A stretch of DNA of 32,000 nucleotides, from positions 2,940,001 through 2,972,000 of the forward strand of contig NC_010628.1 of the NCBI RefSeq assembly GCF_000020025.1, given 5' to 3'. Made by a program: the position numbers and the translations under genes. The notes below the pieces were generated by a model, which saw only the letters and a list, made by a program, of their open reading frames with translations, had not been told where the DNA came from and searched no databases. The stretch is from Nostoc punctiforme PCC 73102. GTDB lineage: Bacteria > Cyanobacteriota > Cyanobacteriia > Cyanobacteriales > Nostocaceae. Position 1 is the stretch's first letter. The number at the start of each line of letters is the position of its first letter. Below, one piece after another: positions 5,457-25,716 of this stretch.

Positions 5457-5850
5457 GGCTAACTTCTTGTTGTTGCTTAGATTTAATTTGACATCATCTT
5501 TTTATCCAATAATCCTTGGAGGAGAATAAGTAATTTTACAAGAATTTAATATTCCGTAGTGAAAGTTAAACCACTGCAAAATAGATAAAAATCTTGACTA
5601 ATGCAATTAACCAGATGGGATAGAGTAAATTCAGTGCATTTCTTCTAAACGTTAAATATAGTACTTTTTGTGGATGAATAAAATACCATCACATTGTACA
5701 CTACTATAAAGAACAACCTTAACTTTTAATTATTGTAAGCAATATTATGCTAGATATTAGGGTTTTAAAAAGCAATCTATACTTACGCGAAACATTTCAT
5801 CTATAGAAAAAAATATACTTTCCCTATAAATTTCAGGTTATTGAATTTAA

Positions 5851-6762
5851 CTAGAAGTTGGTAATACTCTGGCGATCGCTTCCAGCCAGATCGAGTTCAG
5901 ATTGGCTATGTATACTAAAATCTTGGATATTGTTACTCTCTAAAATCACTCTTGCACCTGCTATGTAGATATCAGTGCCTTTTATTACTACTAGATAATG
6001 CCCCCCTGCGACCTGATGCTGATAATATCTGGCTAAATCCTTAGAAATTCCTAAAGTGGGGTAGATATCTTGGGAACTGCTGATATTCACGCCAACAATA
6101 TCACTTGTATTGCTGGTAATTTTAGCAATTATTGATACTTGACTCATAGGAAAACCAGCAGTTCTCAGTTCATTAACTGCTCTTTCTACATTATGGTGCG
6201 TATAAAAAACACCAATAGCGTGCTTATACCGACTATTAGGGGTGGAGTATGGCTCATAAACACTCCAATGCTGAAGATTGCGGCGATTAAAAATCCTCTT
6301 AGCTAGACGAATTTCTATGTCTATGGCGGTTATCATCACCAAATGATAACCTTTACAGACCAGATCGCTGTAACCCTCTGCTTGCTCTTTAGGAATTCCT
6401 AAACTTACCAATACATCCGGTAAACAACCTGGTAAATTGCTAGCGATCGCTCTCGCTTGTGCGCCGGCTACCATGACTTGGCCTACACCAGGAAGTACCC
6501 AGAAGACTAGACCAGTTAATAAGTCATTTAAATCGCCTAAATCACTATCAGTAATGGCTATATCGGTGTCTTCTGAGGATGTATTGCTAGTGCGCTCTTT
6601 AACTTCAACACCAGCAATATCACTTTGTTCTTCTGCATTTCTTGCAATTACAGAAACTTTATGCATTGGGAAATTAGAAGCTTTTAGTTCCTGAAGTGCC
6701 AATTGTGCGTCGGAACATTTAGCGAAAACTACTATAGTTCTTCGCTCTTTTTCTGATGTCAT
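5851..6762 (-). CDS. general-stress (YflT/GSP17M-like) domain protein with an internal tandem duplication
   Basis: Two homologous modules: VVFAKCSDAQLALQELKASNFPMHKVSVIARN...LGIPKEQAEGYSDLVCKGYHLVMI and GVFYTHHNVERAVNELRTAGFPMSQVSIIAKI...LGISKDLARYYQHQVAGGHYLVVI. The first module carries an extra hydrophobic G/A-rich segment (LLTGLVFWVLPGVGQVMVAGAQA). The family name is from memory. Confidence 0.65.
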   Translation of the reverse strand: MTSEKERRTIVVFAKCSDAQLALQELKASNFPMHKVSVIARNAEEQSDIAGVEVKERTSNTSSEDTDIAITDSDLGDLNDLLTGLVFWVLPGVGQVMVAGAQARAIASNLPGCLPDVLVSLGIPKEQAEGYSDLVCKGYHLVMITAIDIEIRLAKRIFNRRNLQHWSVYEPYSTPNSRYKHAIGVFYTHHNVERAVNELRTAGFPMSQVSIIAKITSNTSDIVGVNISSSQDIYPTLGISKDLARYYQHQVAGGHYLVVIKGTDIYIAGARVILESNNIQDFSIHSQSELDLAGSDRQSITNF

Positions 6763-9279: not shown

Positions 9280-10140
9280 ATGAAAGACTTACAAGAAATA
9301 TTAGCGATCGCTCGTGAGATAGCTTGGGGTGCAGCAGATATACTGCGATCGTATTACCACGGTACCGCAAAAGACCCTAACTTAGATGTGCAATATAAAC
9401 AGAACGAGCCTGTTACCGTTGCCGATGTAGCTGTGAGTCAATATATCTTACAGAAGCTACAAGCAACTTTGGGTAACGAAGATTTTGCTTACATCAGCGA
9501 AGAAACCTATCAGTCACCAACTACAGGCACACACCCTTCCGCCCCTTGGGTATGGATAATTGACCCTTTGGATGGCACACGAGACTTTATTGAAAAAACT
9601 GGGGACTATGCAGTTCACATTGCTTTAGTTAAGGAAACACGCCCGATTTTAGCAGTGGTAGCAGTACCAGAAGCAGAAAAGTTATATTACGCTACCAAAG
9701 GTGGGGGGACATTTGTAGAAACCAGTGATGGCTCTGTTCCTTTACAAGTGTCGTCAGGTAAACCAATTGAGGATTTAACCTTAGTGGTTAGTCGCTCTCA
9801 CCGCAACCAGCGCTTAGATTACTTGCTACAAAATTTACCCTGTCAAAATCAGAAATCTGTGGGTAGTGTAGGCTGCAAAATCGCCACTATTGTCGAGCAA
9901 CAAGCAGATATCTACATTTCCCTTTCTGGTAAGTCTGCGCCCAAAGATTGGGATATGGCAGCACCAGAACTGATTTTAACAGAAGCTGGTGGTAAGTTTA
10001 CCCACTTTGACGGCGCTCCGTTGCAGTATAACACTGGTGATATCAATCAATGGGGAGGTTTGCTGGCGAGTAATGGTGAATATCACGAAGCACTGTGCCA
10101 GCAAGCAGAAAAGATTTTAGCGCAGTTCGACCATAGCTAA
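9280..10140 (+). CDS. cysQ: inositol-monophosphatase-superfamily phosphatase, CysQ-like 3'(2'),5'-bisphosphate nucleotidase
   Basis: PVTVADVAV, SEE, WIIDPLDGTRDF, VVSRSH and WDMAAPELILTEAGG are colinear with E. coli CysQ as I remember it (PVTAADIAA, SEE, WLVDPLDGTKEF, VVISRSH, WDTAAGHAVAAAAG). It starts 27 nt after the pfkB kinase stop. Confidence 0.7.
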   Translation: MKDLQEILAIAREIAWGAADILRSYYHGTAKDPNLDVQYKQNEPVTVADVAVSQYILQKLQATLGNEDFAYISEETYQSPTTGTHPSAPWVWIIDPLDGTRDFIEKTGDYAVHIALVKETRPILAVVAVPEAEKLYYATKGGGTFVETSDGSVPLQVSSGKPIEDLTLVVSRSHRNQRLDYLLQNLPCQNQKSVGSVGCKIATIVEQQADIYISLSGKSAPKDWDMAAPELILTEAGGKFTHFDGAPLQYNTGDINQWGGLLASNGEYHEALCQQAEKILAQFDHS

Positions 10141-10960: not shown

Positions 10961-11920
10961 CTAGGGAAGAAAGTTTTTATCTACTTGAGTCTTTTGAATT
11001 GCGCGTTGCGCTTGGATGGAAACTTCTCTATCGGGATCATCCAACGCTTGTTGTAAGGGATTAATAGCATCAGGATGAGCTAAATTACCAAGTGCAATAA
11101 CTGCTTCTTTGCGTACATCTGCATATTCATCTGTTAATGCTTGAATTAATCTCGGCATAACTTGAATATCTGGGATTTTTTGCAAAGCTTGTGCTGCTGA
11201 TTTCCGCACTTGCCAATGTTCATCATTTAAAGCTGTTTCTAATGCTGAAATTGCTTGATGATTCTCATGAATAGCCAAAGATTTAGCTGCATTCCGACGA
11301 ACTTGCCAGTCACTATCATTTGTGGGTGCTTGACAAAGTATTGTAATCACTTCTGCATCTTGTAAATGTTCTAAAGTTAAAGCCGCAGCACGACGCACAC
11401 TTGCTTCTCCATCAAAAATTAGATTTAAAGCTTGGGGACATTTTTCTAGTTGATTGATATATCGCAGTGTGGTAACGGCTGCTTCTCTTAACTGAGGATT
11501 TTTTGATTCTAAAAATAAAACGTAGGGTAAACATTGAATATCATGTATCTTCCGCAAAAGCACTAAAATATTTAATTGCAGATTTACATCATTACTTTGC
11601 AGTTTATCTAGTAAAAGTAACAATTCATCTTGTGTTATTAACTCACTTAATGCTGATGCCGCTTCAGTACGAATATCTGTATCCGATGAAGTAAGGCATT
11701 CAATTAAAGCAGGTATTGCTACAGGATTAGCAATTTCCCAAAGGGCAGATATAGCTATTTTTTTAACAGTAATATGTTCATCTTTCAAAGCGATGATTAA
11801 AGCATTGATTGTTTCTTCATCGCCTAAGTGCTGCAAGGTTTTTACAGCTACTATACGATCATTTATCTCAGGCGATCGCAGCATTTCTAGCCAATACTGG
11901 AGGTTGTTATCTTTATTCAT
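10961..11920 (-). CDS. HEAT-repeat protein (PBS-lyase HEAT-like repeats)
   Basis: Repeated ~31-aa units of the form D..W.VR..AA.AL..I.....I..L..AL.D, for example DEHWQVRKSAAQALQKIPDIQVMPRLIQALTDEYADVRKEAVIALGNL. It starts 26 nt downstream of the ferredoxin gene. Confidence 0.8.
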   Translation of the reverse strand: MNKDNNLQYWLEMLRSPEINDRIVAVKTLQHLGDEETINALIIALKDEHITVKKIAISALWEIANPVAIPALIECLTSSDTDIRTEAASALSELITQDELLLLLDKLQSNDVNLQLNILVLLRKIHDIQCLPYVLFLESKNPQLREAAVTTLRYINQLEKCPQALNLIFDGEASVRRAAALTLEHLQDAEVITILCQAPTNDSDWQVRRNAAKSLAIHENHQAISALETALNDEHWQVRKSAAQALQKIPDIQVMPRLIQALTDEYADVRKEAVIALGNLAHPDAINPLQQALDDPDREVSIQAQRAIQKTQVDKNFLP

Positions 11921-11946
11921 TGTTTAAAAGCACAGAAAGGGAATCT

Positions 11947-12174
11947 TTAACGTAATAAAAAGGGAATCTGTACAGTAATTGCATTCGTTGGACATTCTTT
12001 TTCACAAGGTAGACAAAACCAACACTCATCATATTTCATGTAAGCTTTGCCTGTTTCTGGATTTTTTGCCAATACATCCAAGGGACAAACCTCAATACAG
12101 GCTGTGCATTTTTCTAAACATTTTGATTCATCAACGATCACAGGAACATCTATTCTTTGATTAATTAAAGCCAT
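11947..12174 (-). CDS. 75-aa 2x[4Fe-4S] ferredoxin, AprB-core-like
   Basis: Eight Cys in two motifs: C-x3-C-x2-C-x3-CP (CLEKCTACIEVCP) and CWFCLPCEKECP. The second motif, and the Asp/Glu preceding it, resemble the AprB CWECYSC..CP motif as I remember it. There is no AprB-type C-terminal tail. Confidence 0.75.
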   Translation of the reverse strand: MALINQRIDVPVIVDESKCLEKCTACIEVCPLDVLAKNPETGKAYMKYDECWFCLPCEKECPTNAITVQIPFLLR

Positions 12175-12410
12175 AAAACTACTCCATACTTACTTTTGTA
12201 ACTAAACCGTTAAGCGGTAAAATAGATGGGGTAAATTTGAGTGTATGATTTCAAGCTCGTATTTAAATCCTAACTTTTATATAACCCTTTGTGAAGCTTG
12301 ATTCGTCGTTAGAATAAAGCAAACTATCTAATGCAACTAATGTTGAAATTGCAGACTTCAGCAAGCAGATGGTGAGTAGTAAATGTTTTGATGAATTGCA
12401 TATTATTTTA

Positions 12411-12872
12411 CTAAAGCAATTGTTTATGAAAAGTTAATGATTGCTTGATATTGGTATAGCCAATTTTCTCATAAAATGAGTGCGCTTCTTTGCGTTTAAT
12501 ATTAGAACGTAACAGAACATTATCACATCCAGCTAGAGAAGCCCACTGTTCAATTTGATGCATCAAAAAACGCCCAATTCCACTATGACGACAATCTTTA
12601 TCTACAACTAATCCCAAAAGAATCGCTGGAGTCGGAATAACTATAGAGTCACAAATATGAGCGTGCGCCCAACCAATTACATATTCATCTTCTAAAGTGG
12701 CAACATACACAATATGAGCATCGTTATTTTTAATTTTAGTAAGGCGCTGCTCTATTTGTTGATTTGTCACAAAATATTCTAGTTGTTCGCAAAGACTAGC
12801 AATTATCTCTACATCTTTAATCTCAGCTTGTCTAATTTTAAATTGCCCAACTACAGTTAATTCATTGATCAT
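12411..12872 (-). CDS. GNAT-family N-acetyltransferase
   Basis: 153 aa. Acetyl-CoA-binding core VDKDCRHSGIGRFLMHQIEQWA and C-terminal AHSFYEKIGY. Confidence 0.8.
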   Translation of the reverse strand: MINELTVVGQFKIRQAEIKDVEIIASLCEQLEYFVTNQQIEQRLTKIKNNDAHIVYVATLEDEYVIGWAHAHICDSIVIPTPAILLGLVVDKDCRHSGIGRFLMHQIEQWASLAGCDNVLLRSNIKRKEAHSFYEKIGYTNIKQSLTFHKQLL

Positions 12873-12887
12873 GAGCTTTAGTTTTAA

Positions 12888-13670
12888 TTAGTTATTAAGT
12901 GTTGTGTGAATAAAACGATAGCCTATATCAATCTCTGTCAAATTGTGAATATCACCATATTGTTTTCTCCATTTTTCACTACTTAAATCTGCTGTAAGTA
13001 ACTTCACTCCTTGGTCTACTAAATCTTGATTAGCTAATGCCAAAGATGATATTCCCGCACGTACTTCTGCTTGAAGATATAACTCTGGCCGTCTCCAGCC
13101 TGCTGCTGCGAATAAATCAGATAAATCGTATGGTAATAAAAGGGGTATGGCTTCAACACGCCTTTTAGTATTAATCTGAATTAAGTTTATCTGTTCGTTA
13201 AGTGGTAAAAATTGTAAGGCATCTTCCCACAAAAAGGGAAAATAGTCATAAAGCCATATCTTCTGAGCTAATCTAATATCAAAAGTTAACAAAATTATTG
13301 CCCCATTCTTAATTATTCTGTGCATTTCTTGAAATGCTTTTGGGAGATGGGAAAAGTGATGAATTGCCAGGATGCTTACAACAGTATCAACAGAGTTATC
13401 AAGTAGAGGTAAATTTTCTGCATAGCCAGTAAACCATTTAACTTGCGGATGTTCTACTGCTTGTTTTTGCATTACCAAAGAAGGTTCGATAGCATTAACA
13501 AGAAATCCTTTGTTAGCTAGCGCTAGGCTGTAACCACCGGTACCAGCCCCAATATCAGCAATAATGCTATTTTTGGGTAAATTGAGTAAATCAATTATTT
13601 TATTGACAATGCGGATATCAGGAACGCGAGTTTTTGAGTAGTGTAGACCGATTGAATTATAAATAGACAT
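12888..13670 (-). CDS. class I SAM-dependent methyltransferase
   Basis: Motif I ADIGAGTGGYS and post-I/II blocks VDTVVSILAIHHF. I prefer the ATG at 13670 (MSIYNSIGLHYSKTRVPD...) over the TTG at 13691. Confidence 0.8.
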   Translation of the reverse strand: MSIYNSIGLHYSKTRVPDIRIVNKIIDLLNLPKNSIIADIGAGTGGYSLALANKGFLVNAIEPSLVMQKQAVEHPQVKWFTGYAENLPLLDNSVDTVVSILAIHHFSHLPKAFQEMHRIIKNGAIILLTFDIRLAQKIWLYDYFPFLWEDALQFLPLNEQINLIQINTKRRVEAIPLLLPYDLSDLFAAAGWRRPELYLQAEVRAGISSLALANQDLVDQGVKLLTADLSSEKWRKQYGDIHNLTEIDIGYRFIHTTLNN

Positions 13671-13748
13671 ATTTATGATAATATCTTTCAAAACAAGTTA
13701 AAACTAACCATTTAAAATTGAACTTTAAATGAACAAATTAAACATCTG

Positions 13749-14444
13749 TTATTTAACCAATTCTAGCAATTTTAAGAGTTCACTTATCATAAACTTTGGT
13801 TGTGCTTCTTGTGGTAAAACTTGGTTTTTTCGGTTGTAATAGCAAAAATCAATATTAACTTGCATTGCTCCCGCATAGTCATGAGTGAGAGAATCTCCTA
13901 CGTAAAGTACTTGTGCTGGTGTTAAATCTAATCTAGATAACGCATGATGAAATATTTCAGGAGATGGTTTAGCAAAACCAATTGCTTCCGAAACTACAAC
14001 TTCCTCAAAAAAATGCTCAATTCCCGCAGCTTGCATTCTCGGTAGTTGTGCTGATACAAAACCGTTGGTGATAACAGCTAAACGATAACTGTGTGCGAGA
14101 ACAGTTAGCACTTCCTTTACATCAGGTTCCATGACACCCAAATGATTAAAAATCTGCCAACAACTTTTACCAAGATTGCTGATTTGATCTGTTTTTATAT
14201 TCAATTCAGCAAGCGTACTTTGATAAGACATCTCGATTAACTCAGTAGGAGAAAATTTTTCTCGCTGTATCCAATACTTGGAACTATAAGTTTCAAACAC
14301 TTGAATAAAAGTAGTCTCACTTACTCCATTTAAATCTAAAGAGACTGCACAATCTTCAAGCGCTCCCAGAATAGCTCGGCGTTCACATAGCTCAAAATTT
14401 AATAGTGTATTATCGAGATCGAAAATTATGGCTTTATAATTCAT
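13749..14444 (-). CDS. HAD-superfamily hydrolase (subfamily IA-like)
   Basis: Motif I IIFDLDNTL, motif II VITNG, motif III FAKP, motif IV VGDSLTHDYAGA. Confidence 0.85.
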   Translation of the reverse strand: MNYKAIIFDLDNTLLNFELCERRAILGALEDCAVSLDLNGVSETTFIQVFETYSSKYWIQREKFSPTELIEMSYQSTLAELNIKTDQISNLGKSCWQIFNHLGVMEPDVKEVLTVLAHSYRLAVITNGFVSAQLPRMQAAGIEHFFEEVVVSEAIGFAKPSPEIFHHALSRLDLTPAQVLYVGDSLTHDYAGAMQVNIDFCYYNRKNQVLPQEAQPKFMISELLKLLELVK

Positions 14445-14470
14445 TCAATTCTTTAATTCACGAAAATGCT

Positions 14471-15175
14471 TTATTCTATAGTTGAAATTCTTCTGATTAT
14501 TTTTAGTATTCCTCTGAAATCTTTACTATAAAGTTTATAATTTTTATCATTAGGCTTCCTTACTAAAATTGCTTGTATATCTGCCCGTAATGCTCCAGCG
14601 ATATCAGCATTGTAGCTATCACCTATCATTACACATTCTGTTTTTTCAATTTTTAAATCATTGATGATATAAGCATAGAAATTGAGACTGGGTTTTTCAT
14701 ATCCAATTTTTCCAGACGTATATATTTCATCAAAGTATTCTGTAATATTTAATTGGTCTATGATTTCGTGTAACTCAGGTATATGATTTGATAAAATTAT
14801 ATTTTTATAATTATTCTTGATTGTATATTGTAAAGTAGGAATTACATCATCATATAAATGCCATTTTTCAATATTCTTATATTCATTTTGGACTTGGAAA
14901 GCATATTTTATTGCCTAATTTTTATTTATACCTACTCTCTCATATATTTCTGCAAAGTATTCATTCATGTATTCCCACCATGTTTTTTTATTAAACAATA
15001 AACTATGGGGAGTTTCAGGCGAGTGCCAAGGAAAGATATTCTTCAAGAATGGTCGAATATCTTCTAAATCTATATTGTAGATTCCATTCAATATTAAAAT
15101 TGAATGTAATGTTTCACTCCACATTCCTTGACGATAACCTAGTGTATTATCAAAATCCCAAAATAAATATTTCAT
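14471..15175 (-). pseudogene. second HAD-superfamily hydrolase, interrupted by one in-frame TAG (14915..14917)
   Basis: The listed ORF 14915..15175 gives only the N-terminus (FWDFDNTL, motif I). I translated the same frame by hand past the TAG. It stays open for 147 more codons to the TAA at 14471..14473 and encodes the remaining HAD motifs (IILSN, GYEKP, MIGDSYNADIAGA). Confidence 0.75.
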
Positions 15176-15177
15176 TT

Positions 15178-16887
15178 TTATTTCGTTGCTATATCATAAA
15201 CTTCATGATATATATCCACACCCACAATATAAGTATCAACAGGACGCTTAAACAATATCATTTGTCCTAATTCATCTTTCTTTAAATTGACATGACAAAA
15301 CCACTCTTCATTATTTTTCTCTGGATAATCTAAGCGGTAATGATAAAGACCCCAACGAGTCTCTTGACGATATAATGATGCTCTGGCTGCCATTTCTGCA
15401 CAGTCACGAATAAAGTGAACTTCTAGACTACGCATCAATTCATGAGGGTCACGGGCGCCCATTACATCTAATGTTTGTTGATATTGGACAAAATGTTTCA
15501 AACCAATCTCAATTTTATTGCCTGATTTTGGTGGTTGCAGATAATCATTAACTAAGCGTCTTAATTTGTATTCTACCTGGGTGTGAGGTACACCATTTGG
15601 GCGAGTTAAAGGTGCATAAATTCTGGCTTTTTCAGCTTCTAAAAAGTCTGTATCTGGTTCGATAAAATCTAAATCTTGGATATATTCAATGGCATCAGTT
15701 CCGGCTATGCGACCGAAAACAAATGCCCCAATCATGTAATTATGGGGAACGCTGGCCATGTCTCCGGCTGCATATAAACCAGGGACGGTTGTTTGAGCAT
15801 TTTCATTTACCCACACACCAGAGGCACTATGACCGCTACATAAGCCAATTTCGGAAATGTGCATCTCTACGCCGTGAGTGCGGTAATCTTCATTTCTGCC
15901 TTGATGAAAGCGTTCTCTACTCGGTCGTTCATTTGCCCAAAGTATTGATTCAATTTCAGCAATGGTATCTTCATCAAGGTGGGTCATTTTCAGTTGGACT
16001 GGCCCTTTACCAGAGTTTAATTCTTTCCAGATTTCCAACATCATTTGACCACTCCAATAGTCACAACTAATGAAGCGATTTCCTTCGGCGTTGGCAGTAT
16101 GAGCGCCAAAAGGCCCAGCGACATAAGCACAAGCAGGGCCGTTATAATCTTTAATTAGAGGATTAACTTGAAAGCATTCAATATTGCTGAGTTCTGCTCC
16201 TGCATGATAAGCCATTGAATAGCCATCTCCGGCATTGGTAGGATTTTCGTAAGTGCCGTAGAGATAGCCAGAAGCTGGTAATCCTAATCTGCCGCAAGCA
16301 CCTGTACACAAGATGACTGCTTTGGCTTGAATGACAATATAATCGCCGTTCCTGACATCAAATCCTACTGCACCAACAGCACCACCTTCTTTAACTAACA
16401 CCCTTGTTGACATGACACGATTTGTCACTTTGACTTTGTGGCGTTTGACTTGGCGGGTGAGAATGGTTTTGAGGTCTTTACCTTCTGGCATGGGTAAGAC
16501 ATATTTACCCACACGATGCACTTGTTTTAAATCATAGTTGCCTTGGACATCTTTTTGAAATTTCACCCCCCAACTTTCTAATTCTTGGATGACTTCATAA
16601 CCTAATTTGCCTGTTTGATATACAGCTTTTTGGTTGAGAATACCGTCGTTAGCTAAGGTGATTTCGCGCACGTATTGTTCTGGGGTAGAATGACCAGGAA
16701 TGACTGCGGTGTTTACCCCATCCATACCCATTGCGATCGCACCACTCCGTCGGATGTTAGCCTTTTCTAAAATCAGCACCTCTGCATCGGGATTTGCTTG
16801 TTTAGCTTTGATACCTGCCATTGTTCCGGCTGTACCGCCACCAATGACAAGTACATCAGTTTTTATCCGTTGGGTGTTGATGTCCAT
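15178..16887 (-). CDS. FAD flavoprotein of the fumarate-reductase/AprA superfamily, most similar to the adenylylsulfate reductase alpha subunit (AprA-like)
   Basis: VLVIGGGTAGTMAG dinucleotide fold. RRSGAIAMGMDGVNTAV sits where SdhA/FrdA carry the covalent-flavin His. PEQYVREITL..., KAVILCTG, and the C-terminal RQETRWGLYHYRLDYPEKNNEEWFCHV are colinear with A. fulgidus AprA as I remember it (RKETRWPGYYYRTDYPELNDEEWKCFV). Confidence 0.75.
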   Translation of the reverse strand: MDINTQRIKTDVLVIGGGTAGTMAGIKAKQANPDAEVLILEKANIRRSGAIAMGMDGVNTAVIPGHSTPEQYVREITLANDGILNQKAVYQTGKLGYEVIQELESWGVKFQKDVQGNYDLKQVHRVGKYVLPMPEGKDLKTILTRQVKRHKVKVTNRVMSTRVLVKEGGAVGAVGFDVRNGDYIVIQAKAVILCTGACGRLGLPASGYLYGTYENPTNAGDGYSMAYHAGAELSNIECFQVNPLIKDYNGPACAYVAGPFGAHTANAEGNRFISCDYWSGQMMLEIWKELNSGKGPVQLKMTHLDEDTIAEIESILWANERPSRERFHQGRNEDYRTHGVEMHISEIGLCSGHSASGVWVNENAQTTVPGLYAAGDMASVPHNYMIGAFVFGRIAGTDAIEYIQDLDFIEPDTDFLEAEKARIYAPLTRPNGVPHTQVEYKLRRLVNDYLQPPKSGNKIEIGLKHFVQYQQTLDVMGARDPHELMRSLEVHFIRDCAEMAARASLYRQETRWGLYHYRLDYPEKNNEEWFCHVNLKKDELGQMILFKRPVDTYIVGVDIYHEVYDIATK

Positions 16888-17018
16888 AAGCTTTTAGAAG
16901 TGGGGAGGAACTTTAAGGATTTATTACCGTTCCAAACGATATCTTTGACCTTCAGAACTATAAGCACATTCAATACTACGTTAAAACGAGCAACTTACCG
17001 TATTTTTTGATAAAATAT

Positions 17019-18089
17019 TTACATAGAACCAGAAAAAGTAGCATTTAACGCCCCAGCAATTTGCACAAATACTTGACTAGCTTTGGAGTTAGGGTCAACG
17101 AGCATTAGGGGTTCTCCGACATCGCCGCCATTACAGATGAGGGGATCAATGGGAATCTGCCCTAAAAGAGGTGCTTTGAGTTCTTCTACTAACTTTTGAC
17201 CGCCACCACTACCGAAAATCGAAATTTTTTCGCCACCATTCCCTATGAAATAGCTCATATTTTCGATAATCTCGATAACAGGAACCCCAACTTGGCGAAA
17301 CATATAAACGCTGCGGCGGACATCCGAAATTGCCACATTTTGGGGAGTTGTTACCAATATTACCCCGCAAATCGGGCTTTCTTGCACGATAGTAATTTGA
17401 GCATCACCAGTACCAGGAGGAAGGTCAATTAATAAATAATCCAGTTCTCCCCACTCCACTTCATGGATAAACTGGGTGATGATTTTATGTAAAACTGGGC
17501 CGCGCCAAGCTAAAGGATGGTCTGCTTCAGCCAACAGTCCCACAGACATAACTTTAATACCGTGGGCTTCTAATGGCACAAACCTTTGCCCTTTGGGAGT
17601 ATCAATAACTTTCACTTCAGATTTACCCAGTCCCAGCATTTGGGGAACATTGGGACCGTAAACATCAGCATCCAACAGACCGACTTTTGCCCCAGCCAAT
17701 TGTAAAGCTGCTGCTAAATTAACCGCAGTGGTAGACTTCCCCACACCCCCCTTACCACTGGAAACTGCTAGAGTTGTTCTTACTCCTGGAATGGTGCAGA
17801 GTTGAATGTAAGTTTTTTTACTCCAAGTTAGGGATGATAATACAGTTTGAATCTCGGTTTCTAATTGATGTTGATGGGAACCAATATACAAACGCAAATA
17901 TATATAATCATCAACTATCCGCAGATTTCGCACCATCCCCAGACTAATAATGTCATTTTTTAGGGTGCGATCGCTAATCTGCTTGAGAAGTTGCACAACT
18001 TCTTGTTTCCGGGCGATGGTGAGGGAGTCGCCAGAAGAAGCTTGTACTTCTTCATCTGAACGCTGGAAGGGTAATTGATGGCTTGACAT
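17019..18089 (-). CDS. mrp: Mrp/ApbC/NBP35-family Fe-S cluster carrier ATPase with an N-terminal DUF59-like domain
   Basis: Deviant Walker A SSGKGGVGKSTTAVNLAAAL, followed by LIDLPPGTGD. The N-terminal ~95 aa (IISLGMVRNLRIVDDYIYLRL) is DUF59-like. Confidence 0.9.
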   Translation of the reverse strand: MSSHQLPFQRSDEEVQASSGDSLTIARKQEVVQLLKQISDRTLKNDIISLGMVRNLRIVDDYIYLRLYIGSHQHQLETEIQTVLSSLTWSKKTYIQLCTIPGVRTTLAVSSGKGGVGKSTTAVNLAAALQLAGAKVGLLDADVYGPNVPQMLGLGKSEVKVIDTPKGQRFVPLEAHGIKVMSVGLLAEADHPLAWRGPVLHKIITQFIHEVEWGELDYLLIDLPPGTGDAQITIVQESPICGVILVTTPQNVAISDVRRSVYMFRQVGVPVIEIIENMSYFIGNGGEKISIFGSGGGQKLVEELKAPLLGQIPIDPLICNGGDVGEPLMLVDPNSKASQVFVQIAGALNATFSGSM

Positions 18090-18630: not shown

Positions 18631-19629
18631 ATGCGAAAAAAACATTGCTTTTTAACGCTACTGCTGATTCAGCTAGTTGCACTCATATCACTATTGAGCA
18701 ATTTATCCGCATTAGCAGTTACCGTTAATCTCTGTCCTCCAGAGATGGTACTCATTCCTGGAGGTATTTTCAATATGGGAGCGGATAATTCGGGTTTTGT
18801 GGAAGAGCGAACAGCGAAAAATGTTACAGTTACCTCCTTCTGCATTGATAAATACGAGGTGACAAACGCTCAATTTGCTGAGTTTGTCAAAGCAACAAAG
18901 TATGTAACAGTTGCACAATGCCCTTTGCCAAAAGAGCAGTTTCCCGACTTACCAGATGAGCAGAGATTACCAGGTTCTCTAGTGTTTCATCAGCCAAAAC
19001 AAGGTGTTAAGCAAGTCCAATTTCTCAGTTGGTGGCATTGGACACCTGGCGCTAACTGGCAGCATCCCTTTGGTAGCGACAGCACTGTTGTAGGTAAAGA
19101 AAACTACCCAGTTGTGCATATTGCTTACGAGGATGCCCTCGCTTACGGAATATGGGCAGGAAAATCCTTACCAACAGAAGCACAGTGGGAATATGCGGCT
19201 CGTGGTGGCTTAGATGGCGCAACTTATACCTGGGGTAATCAATATTCGGAGACAAAAGCCAACACCTGGCAGGGGATTTTCCCTTTTTTCAATACCAAAG
19301 CTGATGGTTATATAGGAACGGCAAAAGTAGGCTCTTTTTCGGCCAATGGTTATGGACTTTACGATATGACCGGTAATGTTTGGGAATGGACTTCCGACTG
19401 GTTCAGTTTAGGACATGAGAACAAAGCTCACAGTGTCAACCCCACAGGAGCCAGTAAAAGTTTTGACCCTAAAAAACCCACAGAGATTGCTCTTCATGTA
19501 ATCAAAGGCGGCTCTTATCTATGTGCGCCGAACTATTGCAGCCGCTACCGTCCAGCCGCACGAGAATCTCAAGCTCCCGATACAGGAACTAGCCATATCG
19601 GGTTTCGCTTGGTGAAGAACCTGGTTTAA
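18631..19629 (+). CDS. formylglycine-generating enzyme (SUMF1/FGE family) with an N-terminal signal-like segment
   Basis: MVLIPGGIFNMGAD, YEVTNAQFAEFV, GNVWEWTSDW, and KGGSYLCAPNYCSRYRPAARE...SHIGFRLV. The N-terminus CFLTLLLIQLVALISLLSNLSALA is hydrophobic. Confidence 0.9.
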   Translation: MRKKHCFLTLLLIQLVALISLLSNLSALAVTVNLCPPEMVLIPGGIFNMGADNSGFVEERTAKNVTVTSFCIDKYEVTNAQFAEFVKATKYVTVAQCPLPKEQFPDLPDEQRLPGSLVFHQPKQGVKQVQFLSWWHWTPGANWQHPFGSDSTVVGKENYPVVHIAYEDALAYGIWAGKSLPTEAQWEYAARGGLDGATYTWGNQYSETKANTWQGIFPFFNTKADGYIGTAKVGSFSANGYGLYDMTGNVWEWTSDWFSLGHENKAHSVNPTGASKSFDPKKPTEIALHVIKGGSYLCAPNYCSRYRPAARESQAPDTGTSHIGFRLVKNLV

Positions 19630-19717
19630 AGCATATTTTCATTAGATTGCACTCTTAGGTCGTCTGAGGTGCTTCTGCGTCTCTGCGTGAGAAAAAAATA
19701 GCTATGAAAGGTATTGT

Positions 19718-22054
19718 ATGTTGAGTTTAATTTTCCGGGCAATCGCTCTATCTCTGGTCATCACCTTATTGATAGTTAGTAACCCTGCCCTAGCAGCTAC
19801 ATCAAAGGTTCTCCCTATTCGTCCACCGTCTTTTGAAGGTGAAATTGGCACAACTTACAAAGAGTCAACATCCGATTTTCCTACTCCAATCACCGCTCCT
19901 AAAAATGCTCCTAATGTCTTATTAGTGCTACTGGATGATGTGGGCTTTGGGCAGGCAAGTACTTTTGGTGGTTCTATAGAAACCCCCAATCTGACTCGTT
20001 TAGCGGAAAAAGGATTACGCTACAACCAATTCCACACTACAGCCCTTTGCTCACCTACCAGGGCAGCTTTGTTAACTGGGCGCAATCATCATTCTGTGGG
20101 TACAGGTGTAGTAGCAGAGTTAGCAACTGGTTATCCAGGTTACACAACCATTTTACCCAAGAGTGCGGCCACTGTGGCGGAAGTGCTGCGTCAAAATGGT
20201 TATAATACTGCGGCTTTTGGCAAATGGCACAATACACCAGATTATGAAACCAGTGCAGTGGGGCCTTTTGATCGCTGGCCGACAGGTTTAGGATTTGAGT
20301 ATTTTTACGGTTTTATGGGTGGTGATACTAACCAATGGAGTCCGGCTTTGGTAGAAAATACCAAGCGGGTTGCACCACCAATCAATAATCCTGATTACCA
20401 TTTAACTCCAGATTTAGTAGACCATGCGATCGCCTGGATTCGTTCTCAACAATCCATTGCTCCTGAAAAACCTTTCTTCACCTATCTGGCTATCGGTGCT
20501 ACCCATGCACCCCACCACGCCCCCAAAGCCTGGATTGACAAGTATCAAGGCAAATTTGATCGAGGCTGGGATAAATTGCGGGAAGAAACCTTTGTCCGTC
20601 AGAAACAACTGGGTGTAATTCCTGCCAATGCCCAGCTTACTCCTCGTGCCAAAGAATTCCCAGCTTGGGATTCTCTATCTCAAGATGAACAAAGAATTTA
20701 TGCCCATGAAATGGAGGTCTTTGCAGGATTTTTAGCACATACAGACTATGAAATCGGACGATTGATTGATGGTATAGACAAACTTGGGGAATTAGATAAC
20801 ACCTTAGTAATCTATATCGTTGGTGATAACGGCGCTAGTGCCGAAGGTGGTTTAACTGGTAGCGTCAATGAGCTGAAAATCTTTAACAGAATACCGGAAA
20901 GCCAAGAACAACTTTTAGCTTCCTTGAATGACTTAGGTAGTCCCAAAACCTTTAATCATTATCATGCAGGCTGGGCTTGGGCAGGAACTACACCCTTTCA
21001 ATGGACAAAACAAATTGCCTCTCACTTTGGTGGTACTCGTAATCCCTTAGTTGTTGCTTGGGGCAACCAAATTAAAGATCGTGGTGGACTCCGCAGCCAA
21101 TTCCATCATGTTATTGATATTACACCTACAATTCTCGAAGCGACAGGAATTACTGTACCTACTGAAGTTAACGGGGTGAAACAACAGAAAATTGAAGGTA
21201 CTAGCCTAGTTTACACATTTGACGATCCTGATGCTTCTTCCCAACGCAAAACCCAGTATTTTGAGATGTTTGGAAACCGAGCTATTTATAATAACGGATG
21301 GGTAGCTGCGGCTCGTCACCCGCGCTTGCCTTGGCAGGGGACAATCAATGCTGATTTCGAGCAAGATCCTTGGGAACTATACAACATTGAGGAAGATTTC
21401 AGCGAGGCAAATAACCTCGCAGACAAAAATCCAGAGAAACTGGAAAAACTGCAAAAGTTGTTTTTATCAGAAGCTCGTAAACACAAAGTTTTACCATTAG
21501 ACGATCGCGTTTCTGAACGGTTTGATGTCAAAATTCGCCCCTTTCTAGACGCAGGACGCACCACATTTATTTACTATCCTGGTGCAGTACCGATTCCCGA
21601 AGGTAGCGCCCCAAACCTCAAAAACAGATCGTTCACTATCAAAGCTGATGTAGAGATTCCAGAAAATGGTGCTGAGGGTGTCTTGTTAACCCAAGGTGGA
21701 CGCTTTGCTGGTTGGGGCTTTTTTATTGAAGATGGTAAACCAACCTATACCTACAATTTTGCAAATGCAGAGCGATACATTATTCAATCTCCTGAAAAGT
21801 TACCCCCAGGGAAAGCAACAATAGGATTTGATTTTGATTATGACGGTGGTGTTGGTGCAGGAGGAACTGGGAAATTGTTCATCAACGATCAACAGGTAGC
21901 TCAAGGTCGAATTGAAAAAACTATACCTTATCGTGTGGCATTAGATGAAACCTTTGATGTTGGTCGAGATACAGGTACACCTGTAGTTGATACCTATCAA
22001 GTACCGTTTGCTTTTACAGGTAATTTACAGAAAGTTACCCTGAACTTGAAATAA
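19718..22054 (+). CDS. Cys-type arylsulfatase (long, 778-aa form) with signal peptide
   Basis: [11 protein letters not shown] metal site and the sulfatase signature [15 protein letters not shown] (Cys111, codon 20048..20050), plus GKWH. Signal peptide ends ...SNPALA-AT. Confidence 0.92.
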
Positions 22055-22062
22055 GTTTAGGG

Positions 22063-22090
22063 GTATAGACGTTCCTGGTAACGTCTATAC
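22063..22090. repeat. perfect 11-bp-stem hairpin (TAGAGACG family) 9 nt after the sulfatase stop; possible transcript-end structure
   Basis: gtatagacgtt (22063..22073), loop cctggt, aacgtctatac (22080..22090). No T-tract follows, so it is not a canonical terminator. Confidence 0.6.
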
Positions 22091-22194
22091 AATACTTCTC
22101 GGTTAAGGGGAAAAGGGGAAAGGAAAAAGGGAAAGAAAAAACCTTTAACCCTTACCCAATTCTGAGTTAAAAATGTAAAAAACGAGAACTTTTG
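22090..22194. mobile_element. degenerate copy of the MITE-like element seen at 23208..23326
   Basis: Left end caatacttctcggttaagggg resembles ccaatacggttcggttaaagggg. The interior has the same G/A-rich then C/T-rich arms (ggggaaaagggg...cctttaacccttaccc). Right end agttaaaaatg...cgagaac resembles agtgaaaaatg...ccgaacc. I saw no clean TSD. Confidence 0.35.
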
Positions 22195-22250
22195 CCTCTA
22201 CATCTACTCTTACAAGATCCATAAAAACGATTGCGCGAAAGCAAAAATTT

Positions 22251-23123
22251 ATGAATGAAATTATCCCCATACTTGACAAACTCGCATTCTTGTTGTTTGT
22301 TGTTGCAACTATGTTTGGTACAGGGTTAAAGTTAACTTTACAGCAGATTTGGGGACCACTCCGCAATATCCGTTTAGTTATTTCATCACTGGTGGCAAAT
22401 TTTTTAATTGTACCCCTTTTTATCTATTTGTTATTGCAAGTAGTACCTGTAACCGAACCTGTAAAAGCTGGTTTTATCATTATGGCGTTAGCATCAGGTC
22501 CTCCAGCTTTACCTAAACTGGCTCAAATAGTTAAGGGTAATTTAGCTTTTTCTACAGGGTTAATGATGTTGCTAATGTTTGGCACAGTATTTTATCTGCC
22601 GATTGCACTACCGTTAGTTTTGCAAGGTGTACAAGTCAATTCTTGGGATATTGCCAAACCTTTAATATTGTTGATGTTAACCCCGTTAGTAATTGGGTTA
22701 ATTATTAAAGCAAAATCTGAAGACATAGCCCTCAATTTTCAAGCAATTACGTTCAAAATATCTAACTTTGGATTACTTTTAGGTTTAGTAGTAAGACTAG
22801 TAGTCCACTTTAACGAGATTATCATTTTATTAAAAACAGGTGTAATCTTTGTTTGTGCTATTTTTATTATCTTCTCTTTTACTGTGGGTTATTTATTGGG
22901 TGGGCCTGGTATTGATACTCAAAGAGTTTTAGGGGTAGGAACGGCTCAACGTAATTTTGCTGCTTTATTAATAGGTACGAGCAATTTTGACGATCCTAAT
23001 GTGGTGAGTACCATTATGGTGACAAGTTTATTAATGATGGTTTCAGTTCTGATTTTGGGGAAAAATTTAACAGAAGTAGACCAAGGACAGGGTGCAAAAG
23101 TAGAGTCGGTAGAAATTTCGTGA
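22251..23123 (+). CDS. bile acid:sodium symporter (BASS/SLC10-like) family transporter
   Basis: 290 aa, about 8-9 TM segments. The N-terminal FLLFVVATMFGTGLKLTLQQI and later GFIIMALASGPPA blocks are typical of the BASS family as I remember it. Confidence 0.75.
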   Translation: MNEIIPILDKLAFLLFVVATMFGTGLKLTLQQIWGPLRNIRLVISSLVANFLIVPLFIYLLLQVVPVTEPVKAGFIIMALASGPPALPKLAQIVKGNLAFSTGLMMLLMFGTVFYLPIALPLVLQGVQVNSWDIAKPLILLMLTPLVIGLIIKAKSEDIALNFQAITFKISNFGLLLGLVVRLVVHFNEIIILLKTGVIFVCAIFIIFSFTVGYLLGGPGIDTQRVLGVGTAQRNFAALLIGTSNFDDPNVVSTIMVTSLLMMVSVLILGKNLTEVDQGQGAKVESVEIS

Positions 23124-23397: not shown

Positions 23398-25716
23398 CTA
23401 GATATACATAGCAAAGTAATCATTGTAGATTTCCGTATTAGTCATGACTGTGATTTCTATTTGTTTCTTTTCTTCATCTGTAGCCAGACTCATGGCCGGG
23501 TTTAAGCTATCTTGGGGGATAAAATCACCACAGTATTCATTAGCCGGTACTGTTGCATTCATCTTTTGGGGATAACTCAATTTGAGATTATTCATGATTG
23601 TAATGAATTGACTACGGCTGCGTTCGCGCAGCGCTCCGTAGGAATCGCTAAATCTAGGATTAAAACGCTTTTCTTCGCCAATGGTGGAAACTGTGCGTCC
23701 TTTGTAATCATGGGCGGGATATACCAAGGTATCATCTGGCAAGGTGAATAAGCTTTGTGTCACCACATCGTATAGGGTTCCAGGATCGCCACCTTGAAAA
23801 TCTGTGCGTCCACAACCACGAATAAATAAGGCATCACCAGTTAATAAGTGGGTTTTGTTCACCAAATATGCTATGTGACTAGCACTGTGACCTGGTGTGA
23901 AAATTGCTTCGATCGCTACCGATCCCACATCGATGATTTCGCCACCGACAAGCGAGCGATCGGCTTTCGTGACAGCAGGATTCTGGGGAACGATCACCTG
24001 ACAGCCTGTTTGTTGCCTAAGTTTGCCTGCTCCTGTGATGTGATCGGCATGAAGATGAGTTTCTAGACAATAGCGTAGCTTTAATCCTAGTTCATCTAAT
24101 GATTGCAAATCGCGGTCAACTTGCTCTAATACAGGGTCAACTAGAACAGCATCTCCTGTCTGTCGATCGGCAATCAGGTAAGTATAACTACTAGTTTCAG
24201 GATCAAATAATTGCCGAAATAGTAAGCTTGACTGGGGTATCTGTGAGCCACCATCGCCTGTTTCCTTATTTAACAGCATTGTGGGAATCGGACGCACACG
24301 TACTGGCAGCGACTGCAATAACGCTTGGGATAATTCCTGCGCCTGTACCCGTAATTCTGGAACAGCAATAGTTTCCCACAAGTCGCCTTTGCGAGGAGTT
24401 CCCAAGGTATACAGCAGTGTCGAAACATTGCTGTCTGCCGTATATAAAGCACCGTGAGCATCTGCATCTAATCCTAAGCCGATAGCATTGGGGCGAATTA
24501 ATCCTTGCGATCGCAAATCAGCAATTAGGGGGTGAGGCGATCGGCGATAATCTGCTGCTACCCCGGTACAATTCACTACTCGATGGACGTGTAAGACAGT
24601 ATTAGCATGGGTTTTGCGCTGGCATACAGTCACTGCCACACCATCCGGCAAAGCTTGATATTCCCGAATCCGTCCGGCGGAAATGTTAAGTTGACCAGAA
24701 TCCAACATTTCAGTGACAACATCTGCCACTTTGGGGGCAATGCGGTGACGATGCACGTCCCAATAAGGTGTTAGATGACGCAAAAAGCGCTGCTGTTCTT
24801 CGGTCGGTAGTTTTTGCCAAATTTTCTGAGTTATGGGACGCAGAGAATCAATTACCGATCGCCAGTCATAGCCTTGGGCAGCTGCAACTTCCACCTCGGC
24901 ACGTAGCCGATGCAACCACCCGCGCACACTTTTTGGTGAAGTCTCTGGGGTCAAAAAGCTAGGATAAGGTTTAGCTGCTTGATGTTTTTGGGGAAATAAC
25001 CCTCGTCGAGATATAGCATAAATTTTGCCCCGATGTTGGCGATCGTGCAGAGATAAAACCATATCCACCATCGTTAGTCCTGTACCAATTAGCAGCACGG
25101 GCGCATCCAGATCGAGGTCTGCTAGGGCATCGGCTGACCAGGCATTCCGCAGATAACTTTCATTATTGCTGTCTGCGTTTTTGATTGCCGGGGGTGCAGA
25201 AGGCGAGTTTCCCAACGCCAACACAACTTTATCTGCGGCAAAACAGAGACCACTACGCAGAGAGACGATCGCGCCTTTTCCTTCAGGCTGTACCCCCACG
25301 ACCTCATCGGTCAAACGTTCTAGTCGTACATCACTAGGTGCTGTGGCTTCTGCTTCTGCTAAAATCGACTGAATGTATAAACCATAGACCTTGCGGGGAA
25401 TGAAGCTACTAGCATTGACTTCTTCAGGAAAAAATGACGCTAATTCGTTGCGATTGTACTGAAGCCAACGCAGCAGATGTCCGGGATCGCGAGCAAATGC
25501 ACTCATGTTTCCGGCCGATACATTCAGCAAATGACAGTTGGTATTGGTGCTGTAGGCAATTCCCTTCCCCATTTGATGACTGCGCTCAATCAGCTTAATG
25601 GTGAGAGGTTGGCTGGCAGTTTTCAATAAGTGGGTAGCAACTAGAGAACCGCTAAAGCCTCCACCAACAATAGCGATCGTGGTTGGAGTCTGGGCAGTCA
25701 AAAAACTAGGGTTCAT
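23398..25716 (-). CDS. fusion protein: N-terminal FAD/NAD(P)-binding domain protein (~480 aa) + C-terminal ETHE1-type persulfide dioxygenase (MBL fold)
   Basis: N-terminus: TIAIVGGGFSGSLVATHLL Rossmann motif and a large uncharacterised FAD-NAD(P)-binding-type region. C-terminus: YTYLIAD, HxHxDH (ETHLHADHITG), TPGHSASH, LLTGDALFIRGCGRTDFQGGD, YPAHDYKG, FNPRF, VPANEYCG. Confidence 0.8.
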   Translation of the reverse strand: MNPSFLTAQTPTTIAIVGGGFSGSLVATHLLKTASQPLTIKLIERSHQMGKGIAYSTNTNCHLLNVSAGNMSAFARDPGHLLRWLQYNRNELASFFPEEVNASSFIPRKVYGLYIQSILAEAEATAPSDVRLERLTDEVVGVQPEGKGAIVSLRSGLCFAADKVVLALGNSPSAPPAIKNADSNNESYLRNAWSADALADLDLDAPVLLIGTGLTMVDMVLSLHDRQHRGKIYAISRRGLFPQKHQAAKPYPSFLTPETSPKSVRGWLHRLRAEVEVAAAQGYDWRSVIDSLRPITQKIWQKLPTEEQQRFLRHLTPYWDVHRHRIAPKVADVVTEMLDSGQLNISAGRIREYQALPDGVAVTVCQRKTHANTVLHVHRVVNCTGVAADYRRSPHPLIADLRSQGLIRPNAIGLGLDADAHGALYTADSNVSTLLYTLGTPRKGDLWETIAVPELRVQAQELSQALLQSLPVRVRPIPTMLLNKETGDGGSQIPQSSLLFRQLFDPETSSYTYLIADRQTGDAVLVDPVLEQVDRDLQSLDELGLKLRYCLETHLHADHITGAGKLRQQTGCQVIVPQNPAVTKADRSLVGGEIIDVGSVAIEAIFTPGHSASHIAYLVNKTHLLTGDALFIRGCGRTDFQGGDPGTLYDVVTQSLFTLPDDTLVYPAHDYKGRTVSTIGEEKRFNPRFSDSYGALRERSRSQFITIMNNLKLSYPQKMNATVPANEYCGDFIPQDSLNPAMSLATDEEKKQIEITVMTNTEIYNDYFAMYI

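Follow-up and report, generated by a model that had tools for sequence, protein, structure and literature searches.

An AprBA-like flavoprotein, ferredoxin and HEAT-repeat module in Nostoc punctiforme PCC 73102, with a possible role in the metabolism of imported sulfonates or sulfate esters

A stretch of 32,000 nucleotides from Nostoc punctiforme PCC 73102 (contig NC_010628.1, positions 2,940,001 to 2,972,000 of the forward strand; the whole stretch is called the window here) was analyzed for a minus-strand module built around a flavin adenine dinucleotide (FAD) flavoprotein. The core unit of this module is the flavoprotein, a short 2x[4Fe-4S] ferredoxin and a HEAT-repeat protein, together with an Fe-S maturation factor. 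By sequence comparison the module comes from the lineage of AprBA, the adenosine 5'-phosphosulfate (APS) reductase. The best explanation overall, given a probability of about 0.45, is a ferredoxin-linked flavin-N5 'sulfo' oxidoreductase whose substrate would be an imported sulfonate or sulfate-ester-like anion and whose product is probably sulfite.

Eight co-directional genes were located on the minus strand between 18089 and 10961 in the open reading frame (ORF) listing, and their domains were confirmed with Pfam and NCBIfam. An earlier note on this DNA, made from the sequence alone, had presented them as one gene string. All eight lie where it placed them; the flavoprotein, ferredoxin, HEAT and Mrp genes recur in other genomes, whereas the HAD, methyltransferase and GNAT genes proved to be a lineage-specific insert. 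The genes, with their lengths in amino acids (aa), are:

17019-18089, minus strand: Mrp/NBP35-type P-loop Fe-S carrier, 356 aa, with N-terminal DUF59 (PF10609 307 bits; PF01883 also matched)
15178-16887, minus strand: FAD flavoprotein, 569 aa, catalytic subunit, AprA/PAPS-reductase-like (NF006131/PRK08275 member; PAPS, 3'-phosphoadenosine 5'-phosphosulfate)
14471-15175, minus strand: HAD-family hydrolase pseudogene with one in-frame stop, Nostocales-specific insert (translation)
13749-14444, minus strand: HAD-IA hydrolase, YjjG-like, accessory insert (Pfam HAD_2; TIGR02254 141 bits, under cutoff)
12888-13691, minus strand: class I S-adenosylmethionine-dependent methyltransferase, accessory insert (Methyltransf_11 and Methyltransf_25)
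12411-12872, minus strand: GNAT N-acetyltransferase, accessory insert (Acetyltransf_1)
11947-12174, minus strand: 2x[4Fe-4S] ferredoxin, 75 aa, AprB-core-like electron-transfer subunit (aprB TIGR02060 and PDB matches)
10961-11920, minus strand: PBS-lyase-type HEAT-repeat protein, 319 aa, presumed third subunit or scaffold (HEAT_2, E 2e-53)

A genome scan confirmed at least 598 relatives (among 600 stretches listed), and the best 80 of these loci, 49 cyanobacterial and 31 proteobacterial, were analyzed for gene content. The ferredoxin gene adjoined that of the flavoprotein in 78 of the 80 loci and the HEAT protein was encoded in 73, the loci without one or the other being mostly contigs that end early. 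In Streptomyces the flavoprotein and HEAT protein are one polypeptide of ∼910 aa. The association of the three genes, seen in two phyla and as a fusion in a third, is far beyond chance, and the partnership suspected in the earlier note was borne out by this survey. Cyanobacterial loci were ordered flavoprotein-ferredoxin-HEAT-Mrp, with Mrp present in 41 of the 49; two Prochlorococcus single-cell genomes carried the module (72% identity). The proteobacterial order was GntR/UTRA-flavoprotein-ferredoxin-SBP-permease-ATPase-HEAT-DUF971 (SBP, substrate-binding protein), with GntR in 29 of the 31 loci and DUF971 in 21; Mesorhizobium plasmid pMLa held DUF971-flavoprotein-ferredoxin-HEAT only. Proteobacterial hosts were Acinetobacter (including A. 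baumannii), Pseudomonas, Herbaspirillum, Massilia, Burkholderiaceae, rhizobial plasmids, methanotrophs, Sulfuriferula and Halothiobacillus. The sulfur plasmid pANL of Synechococcus elongatus was not among the plasmid matches listed (40 of 58).

The flavoprotein scored 1018.3 bits against NF006131/PRK08275 (cutoff 587), residues 2-559 aligning with model positions 3-561 of 577. This family carries the database label 'fumarate reductase/succinate dehydrogenase flavoprotein subunit' and is otherwise uncharacterised. NF010374/PRK13800, an 898-position model of a flavoprotein and HEAT fusion, gave 906 bits (cutoff 1196). Scores were below cutoff for NF005331 (adenylyl-sulfate reductase alpha, MtPAPSR type; 320.6 bits, cutoff 557) and for TIGR02061 (aprA; 189 bits, cutoff 641.75). 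Models of TfrA, SdhA/FrdA, NadB and TcuA gave 166 bits or less, the SdhA/FrdA models reaching at most 154 bits (cutoffs 567-930) and NadB TIGR00551 114.6 bits (cutoff 452.75); identity was 22% to E. coli SdhA and 23% to E. coli NadB. Pfam matches were FAD_binding_2 and Succ_DH_flav_C. The PDB sequences searched included no structure of the NF006131 family. The top match among them was 8A8O_A (E 5e-68, or 2e-82 with a family profile), and the order below this alpha subunit was Archaeoglobus fulgidus AprA (2FJA, E 8e-46), Desulfovibrio gigas AprA, SdhA (E 6e-20) and NadB. Several Nostoc proteins were 95-97% identical to the flavoprotein, and 223 of its 569 positions were invariant among 81 cyanobacterial and proteobacterial orthologues.

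A neighbour-joining tree was built with 200 bootstraps and a distance cap, leaving out full-length dissimilatory AprA and utilizing E. coli SdhA and NadB as the outgroup; an uncapped version with saturated distances gave the same topology. The window flavoprotein grouped with the cyanobacterial and proteobacterial orthologues and the representative of the Streptomyces fusion, with P0131 as the next branch on this group (100% support). Other uncharacterised groups at ∼40% identity fell outside the clade of flavoprotein and P0131, and the MtPAPSR-like clade was the sister (97.5% support) of the family and these groups taken together. Identity as SdhA/FrdA or NadB was ruled out by the profile scores, the PDB order, the tree and missing substrate residues. 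The hidden Markov model ranking, the PDB ranking and the tree thus agree on the AprA/PAPS-reductase branch, in line with the divergent AprBA-like redox module postulated in the earlier note. Its view of the module as an undescribed cyanobacterial system holds in part: the literature searched, itself incomplete, contained no study of it, but the NF006131 family is already catalogued, under a misleading name, and is widespread rather than a cyanobacterial oddity. Useful literature on relatives of the family was found (PMC10322725, PMC2211403, PMC6906117, 10.1101/072470). Points absent from the first reading were 8A8O as the closest characterised relative, the usual SsuA/TauA-type importer with a matching regulator, and an Mrp without CxxC.

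The active site was compared with that of AprA, where Asn-A74, Trp-A234 and Arg-A265 make up an invariant quartet with His-A398, and Tyr-A95, His-A446, Val273/Gly274 and an Arg317/Leu278 clamp contact AMP (PMC2211403). Asn74, His398 and His446 are retained in the window flavoprotein as N59, H353 and H382, all invariant in the family, H353 being the active-site His common to Frd, NadB and AprA across the superfamily. The Trp and Arg of the quartet are absent: Trp234-Tyr235 are replaced by Tyr213-Glu214, and Arg265 by Leu244 within N242-P243-L244. Tyr95 is replaced by Glu75, Glu141 by Val126 and Gln145 by Val130; Leu278 aligns with Ala257 and Arg317 lies in a non-aligning region. The earlier note had proposed checking the AprA substrate-channel residues: Asn74, His398 and His446 are kept, and Arg265, Trp234, Tyr95, Glu141 and Gln145 are replaced. 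These replacements were invariant in every orthologue examined, at positions where the MtPAPSR-like clade has W-Y, R and Y. Since Arg265 is Leu, Trp234 is Tyr and the nucleotide contacts are replaced, APS or PAPS is an unlikely substrate.

The capping domain carries an invariant set of its own (R271, H303, R321, R324, H328, R331 and R336) with no AprA counterpart. The substrate residues of Frd and NadB are absent, H-P-T reading N242-P243-L244 and the Arg of HGANRLG being Tyr384. As the earlier note had observed, the covalent-flavin His of SdhA/FrdA is missing: the position is Gly49 in R47-S48-G49-A50 (compare ERSGA in AprA), which predicts non-covalent FAD. Its remark that the C-terminus is colinear with A. 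fulgidus AprA was likewise confirmed in PDB alignments. On these alignments the pocket is read as AprA-like at its flavin/sulfite end and as probably rebuilt at its leaving-group end.

The ferredoxin matched AprB models and PDB entries 3GYX_B, 8A8O_C and 1JNR_B over their first ∼65 residues only, scoring 37.3 bits against AprB TIGR02060 (cutoff 135.65). It aligned to AprB residues 1-65, the Trp of CWxC included, and lacks the beta-sheet segment and the C-terminal tail that wraps AprA; its description as an AprB core without the tail was accurate. All eight cluster-binding positions (C19, C23, C26, C30, C51, C54, C57 and C61), W52 of the CWxC motif (the equivalent of the AprB electron relay Trp-B48) and a C-terminal IPxLL motif were invariant in 79 ferredoxin sequences.

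The HEAT protein matched positions 610-897 of the fusion model NF010374/PRK13800, and because a natural fusion with the flavoprotein exists it is taken as a fixed structural subunit. The S. venezuelae operon reads GntR-ferredoxin-SBP-permease-ATPase-flavoprotein::HEAT. A phycobiliprotein lyase or NblB-type role (CpcE, CpcF, NblB) was considered and rejected, the protein containing generic HEAT_2 and HEAT_PBS repeats only and scoring 89 bits against NblB (cutoff 300) and 79 bits against CpcE (cutoff 330). PDB searches returned designed alphaRep proteins and deoxyhypusine hydroxylase only and gave no functional lead.

The window Mrp lacks the CxxC cluster-bridging motif after ENMS, reading ENMSYFIGNGGEKISIFG (also quoted as ENMSYFIGNGGE), and scored 283.8 bits against NF008669, under the cutoff of 348. 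CxxC was present in 24 of the 41 operon-linked cyanobacterial Mrp copies and absent in 17, three of which lack the region. Copies with and without CxxC occur in the same slot, so two Mrp types occupy one operon position. For DUF971, mutant cofitness data provide a link to Fe-S maintenance (10.1101/072470).

A binding-protein domain of SsuA/TauA type was found in 74 of the 80 loci, in three forms. In the first it is the SBP of a neighbouring NitT/TauT ATP-binding cassette (ABC) importer. In Nostocales a canonical SsuA is encoded directly upstream (NF008588 308 bits, cutoff 299). In other cyanobacteria a LysR regulator of ∼660-700 aa, transcribed divergently from the flavoprotein, is fused to an SsuA/TauA-like domain; this unusual architecture of LysR helix-turn-helix, effector and C-terminal binding-protein domains was seen at L037:3349-5448 and in 20 other cyanobacterial loci. 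The structures nearest to the transporter SBP were SsuA and TauA. In an alignment with E. coli TauA, the transporter SBP and the LysR-fused sensor alike retain its sulfonate ligands (Gln30, Gly61 and Ser131), and in both of them Asn and His uniformly stand in for its amine ligands Glu106 and Asp205. Importer and regulator therefore seem to recognise one and the same ligand, of sulfonate type and without an amino group. A C-terminal extension of ∼130 aa was present in the SBP at L071:8119-9525 and in 37 other SBPs, its sole match being a sub-threshold one to NosL (20 bits, cutoff 24).

Other recurrent neighbours were sulfur genes: a YeiH 'sulfate exporter' in 14 loci, TauE/SafE in 7 loci, and SsuD-like monooxygenase, MetX/MetY, YeeE, encapsulated cysteine desulfurase and sulfotransferase genes. 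A Sulfotransfer_3 gene (E 5e-36) lies inside the operon, in the gap between ferredoxin and ABC genes, at L066:8515-9669 (Methylomonas) and L060:5109-6263 (Porticoccaceae), and directly connects the module with the chemistry of sulfate esters or PAPS. In Acinetobacter (L062:351-3228, L067 and L074) a family-2A encapsulin with cysteine-desulfurase cargo is encoded 2-3 kb upstream of GntR, with two genes between; the pair is the SrpI-type nanocompartment of sulfur starvation. An allophanate-hydrolase-like amidase was found in 7-9 loci. FdxA-type ferredoxin genes lie inside the operon at three sulfur-oxidiser loci, so a soluble ferredoxin fits as the redox partner. Cys and Met made up 1.3-1.9% of the SBP, HEAT and regulator proteins against 2.7% of background ORFs. 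This is no more than a hint of economy under sulfur starvation, since the flavoprotein is itself rich in sulfur.

From these data the following mechanism is proposed. The flavoprotein and ferredoxin would form an AprA/AprB-like heterodimer, in which two [4Fe-4S] clusters and the conserved Trp may carry electrons between non-covalent FAD and an external partner of ferredoxin type. The HEAT solenoid would be a fixed third subunit, possibly replacing the clamping or docking provided by the absent AprB tail, and Mrp or DUF971 would load the clusters. The candidate substrate is a small sulfonate-type anion without an amino group (R-SO3- or R-O-SO3-), not APS or PAPS. In most genomes this anion would be delivered by the dedicated SsuA/TauA-family ABC importer and sensed by a regulator with the same binding domain. 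The likeliest chemistry is that of AprA: reduced flavin N5 would attack the sulfo group, the flavin-sulfite adduct being held by Asn59 and His353, and sulfite would then be freed for assimilation or export. In this Nostoc the module lacks the importer, lies in a sulfur-acquisition neighbourhood and contains a strain-variable accessory insert. A narrower form of the proposal is held only tentatively and is somewhat doubtful. Here the enzyme would be a ferredoxin-dependent 'sulfo-reductase' that removes sulfite reductively, at flavin N5, from an imported non-nucleotide sulfo compound (an activated C-S sulfonate, or a sulfate or thiosulfate ester), with HEAT obligatory and Mrp or DUF971 maturing the Fe-S clusters.

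Several points weigh against a sulfo oxidoreductase. In AprA the sulfo group is polarised by Arg-A265 and Trp-A234; both are lost here, to Leu and Tyr, and therefore the sulfite-adduct chemistry may be changed or gone. We know of no precedent for reductive attack on the C-S bond of an alkanesulfonate, for which a good leaving group is needed. The SBP aligned with TauA at roughly 20-25% identity, and no SBP or ABC importer genes were found in the window. Local substrate-type regulators of the GntR and LysR kinds are commoner in catabolic operons than in sulfur-starvation regulons. Sulfate is not limiting in seawater, and simple sulfur scavenging is therefore disfavoured by the finding that sulfate-replete marine cyanobacteria, Prochlorococcus among them, have the module. 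An AlphaFold2 model of the single-chain Streptomyces fusion, made with a 30-sequence alignment, was confident for the HEAT solenoid alone (pLDDT 61, pTM 0.41 overall) and uninformative on the interface of HEAT and flavoprotein. In the literature searched, no experiments or papers on any family member were found.

The rival that survives best, itself unlikely, is an oxidative dehydrogenase. The flavoprotein would oxidise an imported organosulfonate at C-H or C-N, as NadB, Frd and TcuA oxidise their substrates, or would oxidise sulfite; electrons would leave via the ferredoxin, and the sulfonated product or sulfate would be exported. Dehydrogenases of C-H and C-N bonds dominate the superfamily, and of the active-site residues the His common to Frd, NadB and AprA remains but the Arg and Trp specific to AprA do not; the residues with which Frd and NadB bind dicarboxylates and amino acids are, however, missing as well (N-P-L for H-P-T, Tyr for the Arg of HGANRLG). 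TauE/YeiH exporters and allophanate-hydrolase-like amidases beside the operon, its local substrate-type regulators and its occurrence in sulfate-replete marine cyanobacteria would all suit this scheme. Against it, sulfite-forming reductases are the nearest relatives by every measure, and no operon encodes a membrane or quinone-linked acceptor, soluble FdxA-type ferredoxins being the only extra redox genes.

A non-sulfur substrate is quite improbable. The importer would then carry a tetrahedral or planar anion of another kind (for instance a phosphonate, organoarsenical or nitro compound), to be reduced or oxidised by the flavoprotein. The SBP falls under the SsuA-family cutoff (117 against 163.5) with weak Phosphonate-bd matches, but the Nostocales SBP lies above the SsuA cutoff (308 against 299), every one of the closest SBP structures binds sulfonates, and the residues that hold the sulfonate are conserved. 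Resemblance of the GntR regulator to PhnF and PhnR, weak similarity of the GNAT, methyltransferase and VOC genes of the Nostoc insert to ArsN, ArsM, PhnO and FosA, and the allophanate-hydrolase-like neighbours, which suggest nitrogen metabolism, point towards such a substrate; the recurrent neighbours are nevertheless sulfur genes, and the nearest relatives of the enzyme act on sulfur.

That the enzyme is truly an APS or PAPS reductase of assimilation, like the AprBA-like one of Methanothermococcus, working beside CysH or replacing it, is very improbable. The best PDB match is the alpha subunit of 8A8O, its beta subunit is also matched, and two proteobacterial operons contain the sulfotransferase gene. 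The flavoprotein nevertheless falls under both Apr-type cutoffs (321 against 557 and 189 against 642), branches separately from the MtPAPSR-like clade and has Leu, Tyr/Glu and Glu for Arg265, Trp234/Tyr235 and Tyr95, with Glu141 and Gln145 also replaced. A dedicated importer and a ligand-sensing regulator would be senseless for an intracellular nucleotide, and the CysQ-like phosphatase gene 0.8 kb away, which would fit such an enzyme, is not conserved beside the module. The annotated function, a succinate dehydrogenase/fumarate reductase flavoprotein subunit, is effectively refuted: its Pfam matches and the name used in source annotations are outweighed by model scores far under cutoff, 22% identity to E. 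coli SdhA, the absence of three residues (the His for covalent FAD, that of HPT and the Arg for the substrate), and the lack of any SdhB, SdhC or SdhD-type partner, an AprB-like ferredoxin and HEAT protein being present instead.

The HAD-HAD-methyltransferase-GNAT block was found in Nostocales only and always between the flavoprotein and ferredoxin genes (loci L007-L033, L050, L068 and L089). Its genes vary by strain and include HAD, methyltransferase, GNAT, VOC/FosA-like, PdxJ-like and ArgJ-like genes, or else MetY and MetX together with a YghX-like gene. The methyltransferase was present in 7 loci and the GNAT in 10, all Nostocales, and a HAD of the intact type in some Nostocales loci only. 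In the window the insert has a GC content of 30-35% against 38-43% in its flanks. The first HAD contains a single stop after codon 86, and the interrupted form occurs in contigs of several independent sequencing runs; it is intact in L008 and on the Nostoc edaphicum plasmid pNe_5, which has a window-like arrangement plus a VOC gene, with Mrp downstream of HEAT. The idea that the eight genes form one conserved pathway was rejected, the HAD, methyltransferase and GNAT genes being lineage-specific and low in GC.

Further genes of the window with a possible sulfur connection are:

18631-19629, plus strand: formylglycine-generating enzyme (PF03781, E 6e-78; not core)
19718-22054, plus strand: sulfatase, 778 aa (PF00884, E 2e-65; not core)
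23398-25716, minus strand: fusion of FAD/NAD(P)-binding and metallo-beta-lactamase domains (the latter persulfide-dioxygenase/GloB-like), 772 aa (PF13454, PF00753; Blh/GloB model match)
9280-10140, plus strand: CysQ-like inositol-monophosphatase-family protein (TIGR01331 158 bits, cutoff 228.8)

The formylglycine-generating enzyme, the 778-aa sulfatase and a BASS-family transporter are encoded divergently from Mrp (18631-23123, plus strand) and are a sulfate-ester utilisation set. The CysQ-like gene lies past the HEAT gene on the opposite strand. Neither this set nor the CysQ gene was conserved beside the module in the 80 loci compared, and the formylglycine-generating enzyme, sulfatase and CysQ were rejected as conserved partners. 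The 772-aa fusion protein also flanks the module on N. edaphicum pNe_5, and in Nostoc it may be one more partner connected with sulfur. The window contains prs and rsmI and is therefore chromosomal. An Rfam scan found no riboswitch or other RNA, promoter and terminator scans performed no better than on shuffled sequence, no tRNA genes were found, and tandem repeats amounted to two short, low-scoring and uninformative arrays. Elsewhere in the window, 1135-4782 on the minus strand encodes a 1215-aa hybrid histidine kinase (CHASE3, HAMP, GAF, HisKA, HATPase and three receivers), unrelated to the module. Positions 5001-6000 are the lowest-GC kilobase (29%), adjoining a 303-aa ORF at 5851-6762 with a weak YflT stress-protein domain.

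Known aerobic routes for sulfonates and sulfate esters are O2-dependent desulfonation (SsuD, TauD, MsuD) or hydrolysis to sulfate followed by ATP-costly re-activation. If the proposal is correct, the module would be a third organosulfur route, requiring neither O2 nor ATP, in bacteria of three phyla, and, after the methanogen PAPS reductase of 2023, just the second AprBA relative known outside dissimilatory metabolism. The family is large, with at least 598 genomic relatives, and strongly constrained, its 223 invariant residues being shared by cyanobacteria and proteobacteria. Its hosts are genetically tractable or ecologically important (A. baumannii, Pseudomonas, S. venezuelae, rhizobial plasmids, methanotrophs, Nostoc and some Prochlorococcus). 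A functional answer either way would replace a misleading 'succinate dehydrogenase' annotation across the whole family.

New in this AprBA descendant are the obligatory partner, the apparently rebuilt pocket and the transporter-coupled operon. The closest known system is the enzyme of Methanothermococcus thermolithotrophicus (8A8O), shown to have AprBA architecture and to make sulfite from PAPS for assimilation (Jespersen et al., 2023, PMC10322725). Shared with it are the length of the alpha subunit (571 against 569 aa, aligning end to end at ∼30% identity), non-covalent FAD, the Asn74 and His398 equivalents, a short ferredoxin of the 2x[4Fe-4S] type, relay Trp included, as beta subunit, and a setting that is assimilatory and not respiratory. 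In the window flavoprotein the catalytic Arg is Leu, Trp-Tyr is Tyr-Glu and Tyr95 is Glu; it also differs in its separate clade and in a capping domain with its own invariant Arg/His set. Its module has an obligatory HEAT partner, and in the operon importer and regulator genes are found where the methanogen type would have those for sat or APS kinase.

Dissimilatory AprBA (A. fulgidus 1JNR/2FJA, D. gigas 3GYX) has the same fold family, a colinear FAD region and C-terminal domain (including RxETRW...YRxDYPE), and conserved Asn74, His398, His446, AprB ferredoxin core and Trp-B48. Missing from the module are the AprA insertion of ∼70 aa and, in the ferredoxin (75 against 150 aa), the beta-sheet and tail of AprB. 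Arg265, Trp234, Tyr95, Glu141 and Gln145 are not kept; scores for TIGR02061 and TIGR02060 are far under their cutoffs. It is not accompanied by sat, qmo, aprM or dsr genes, and its hosts are aerobes and oxygenic phototrophs.

Like the SsuEADCB and TauABCD systems, the module occurs in a sulfur-acquisition setting and places a NitT/TauT-family importer, with an SsuA/TauA-like SBP that keeps the sulfonate-ligand residues, beside an enzyme predicted to release sulfite. That enzyme is an FAD/Fe-S protein apparently of the AprA lineage and not an O2-dependent monooxygenase utilizing reduced flavin mononucleotide (SsuD) or a 2-oxoglutarate dioxygenase (TauD), and the module SBP differs in its ∼130-aa C-terminal extension and in Asn and His for the TauA amine ligands. 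In its maturation factors the module divides the architecture of HCF101, the Mrp/DUF59 half occurring in cyanobacterial modules and a free-standing DUF971 half in proteobacterial ones; compared with HCF101 and Mrp/ApbC, the carrier gene is dedicated to one operon, and the window copy and 16 others have no recognisable CxxC. The Streptomyces fusion NF010374/PRK13800 is orthologous to the module, its flavoprotein part being 60% identical with all family-specific motifs. Its operon likewise encodes the 75-aa ferredoxin, along with an ABC importer of SsuA/TauA-like type and a regulator of GntR/UTRA type, and the fusion differs in being a single polypeptide and in the absence of an Mrp or DUF971 gene from the S. 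venezuelae operon.

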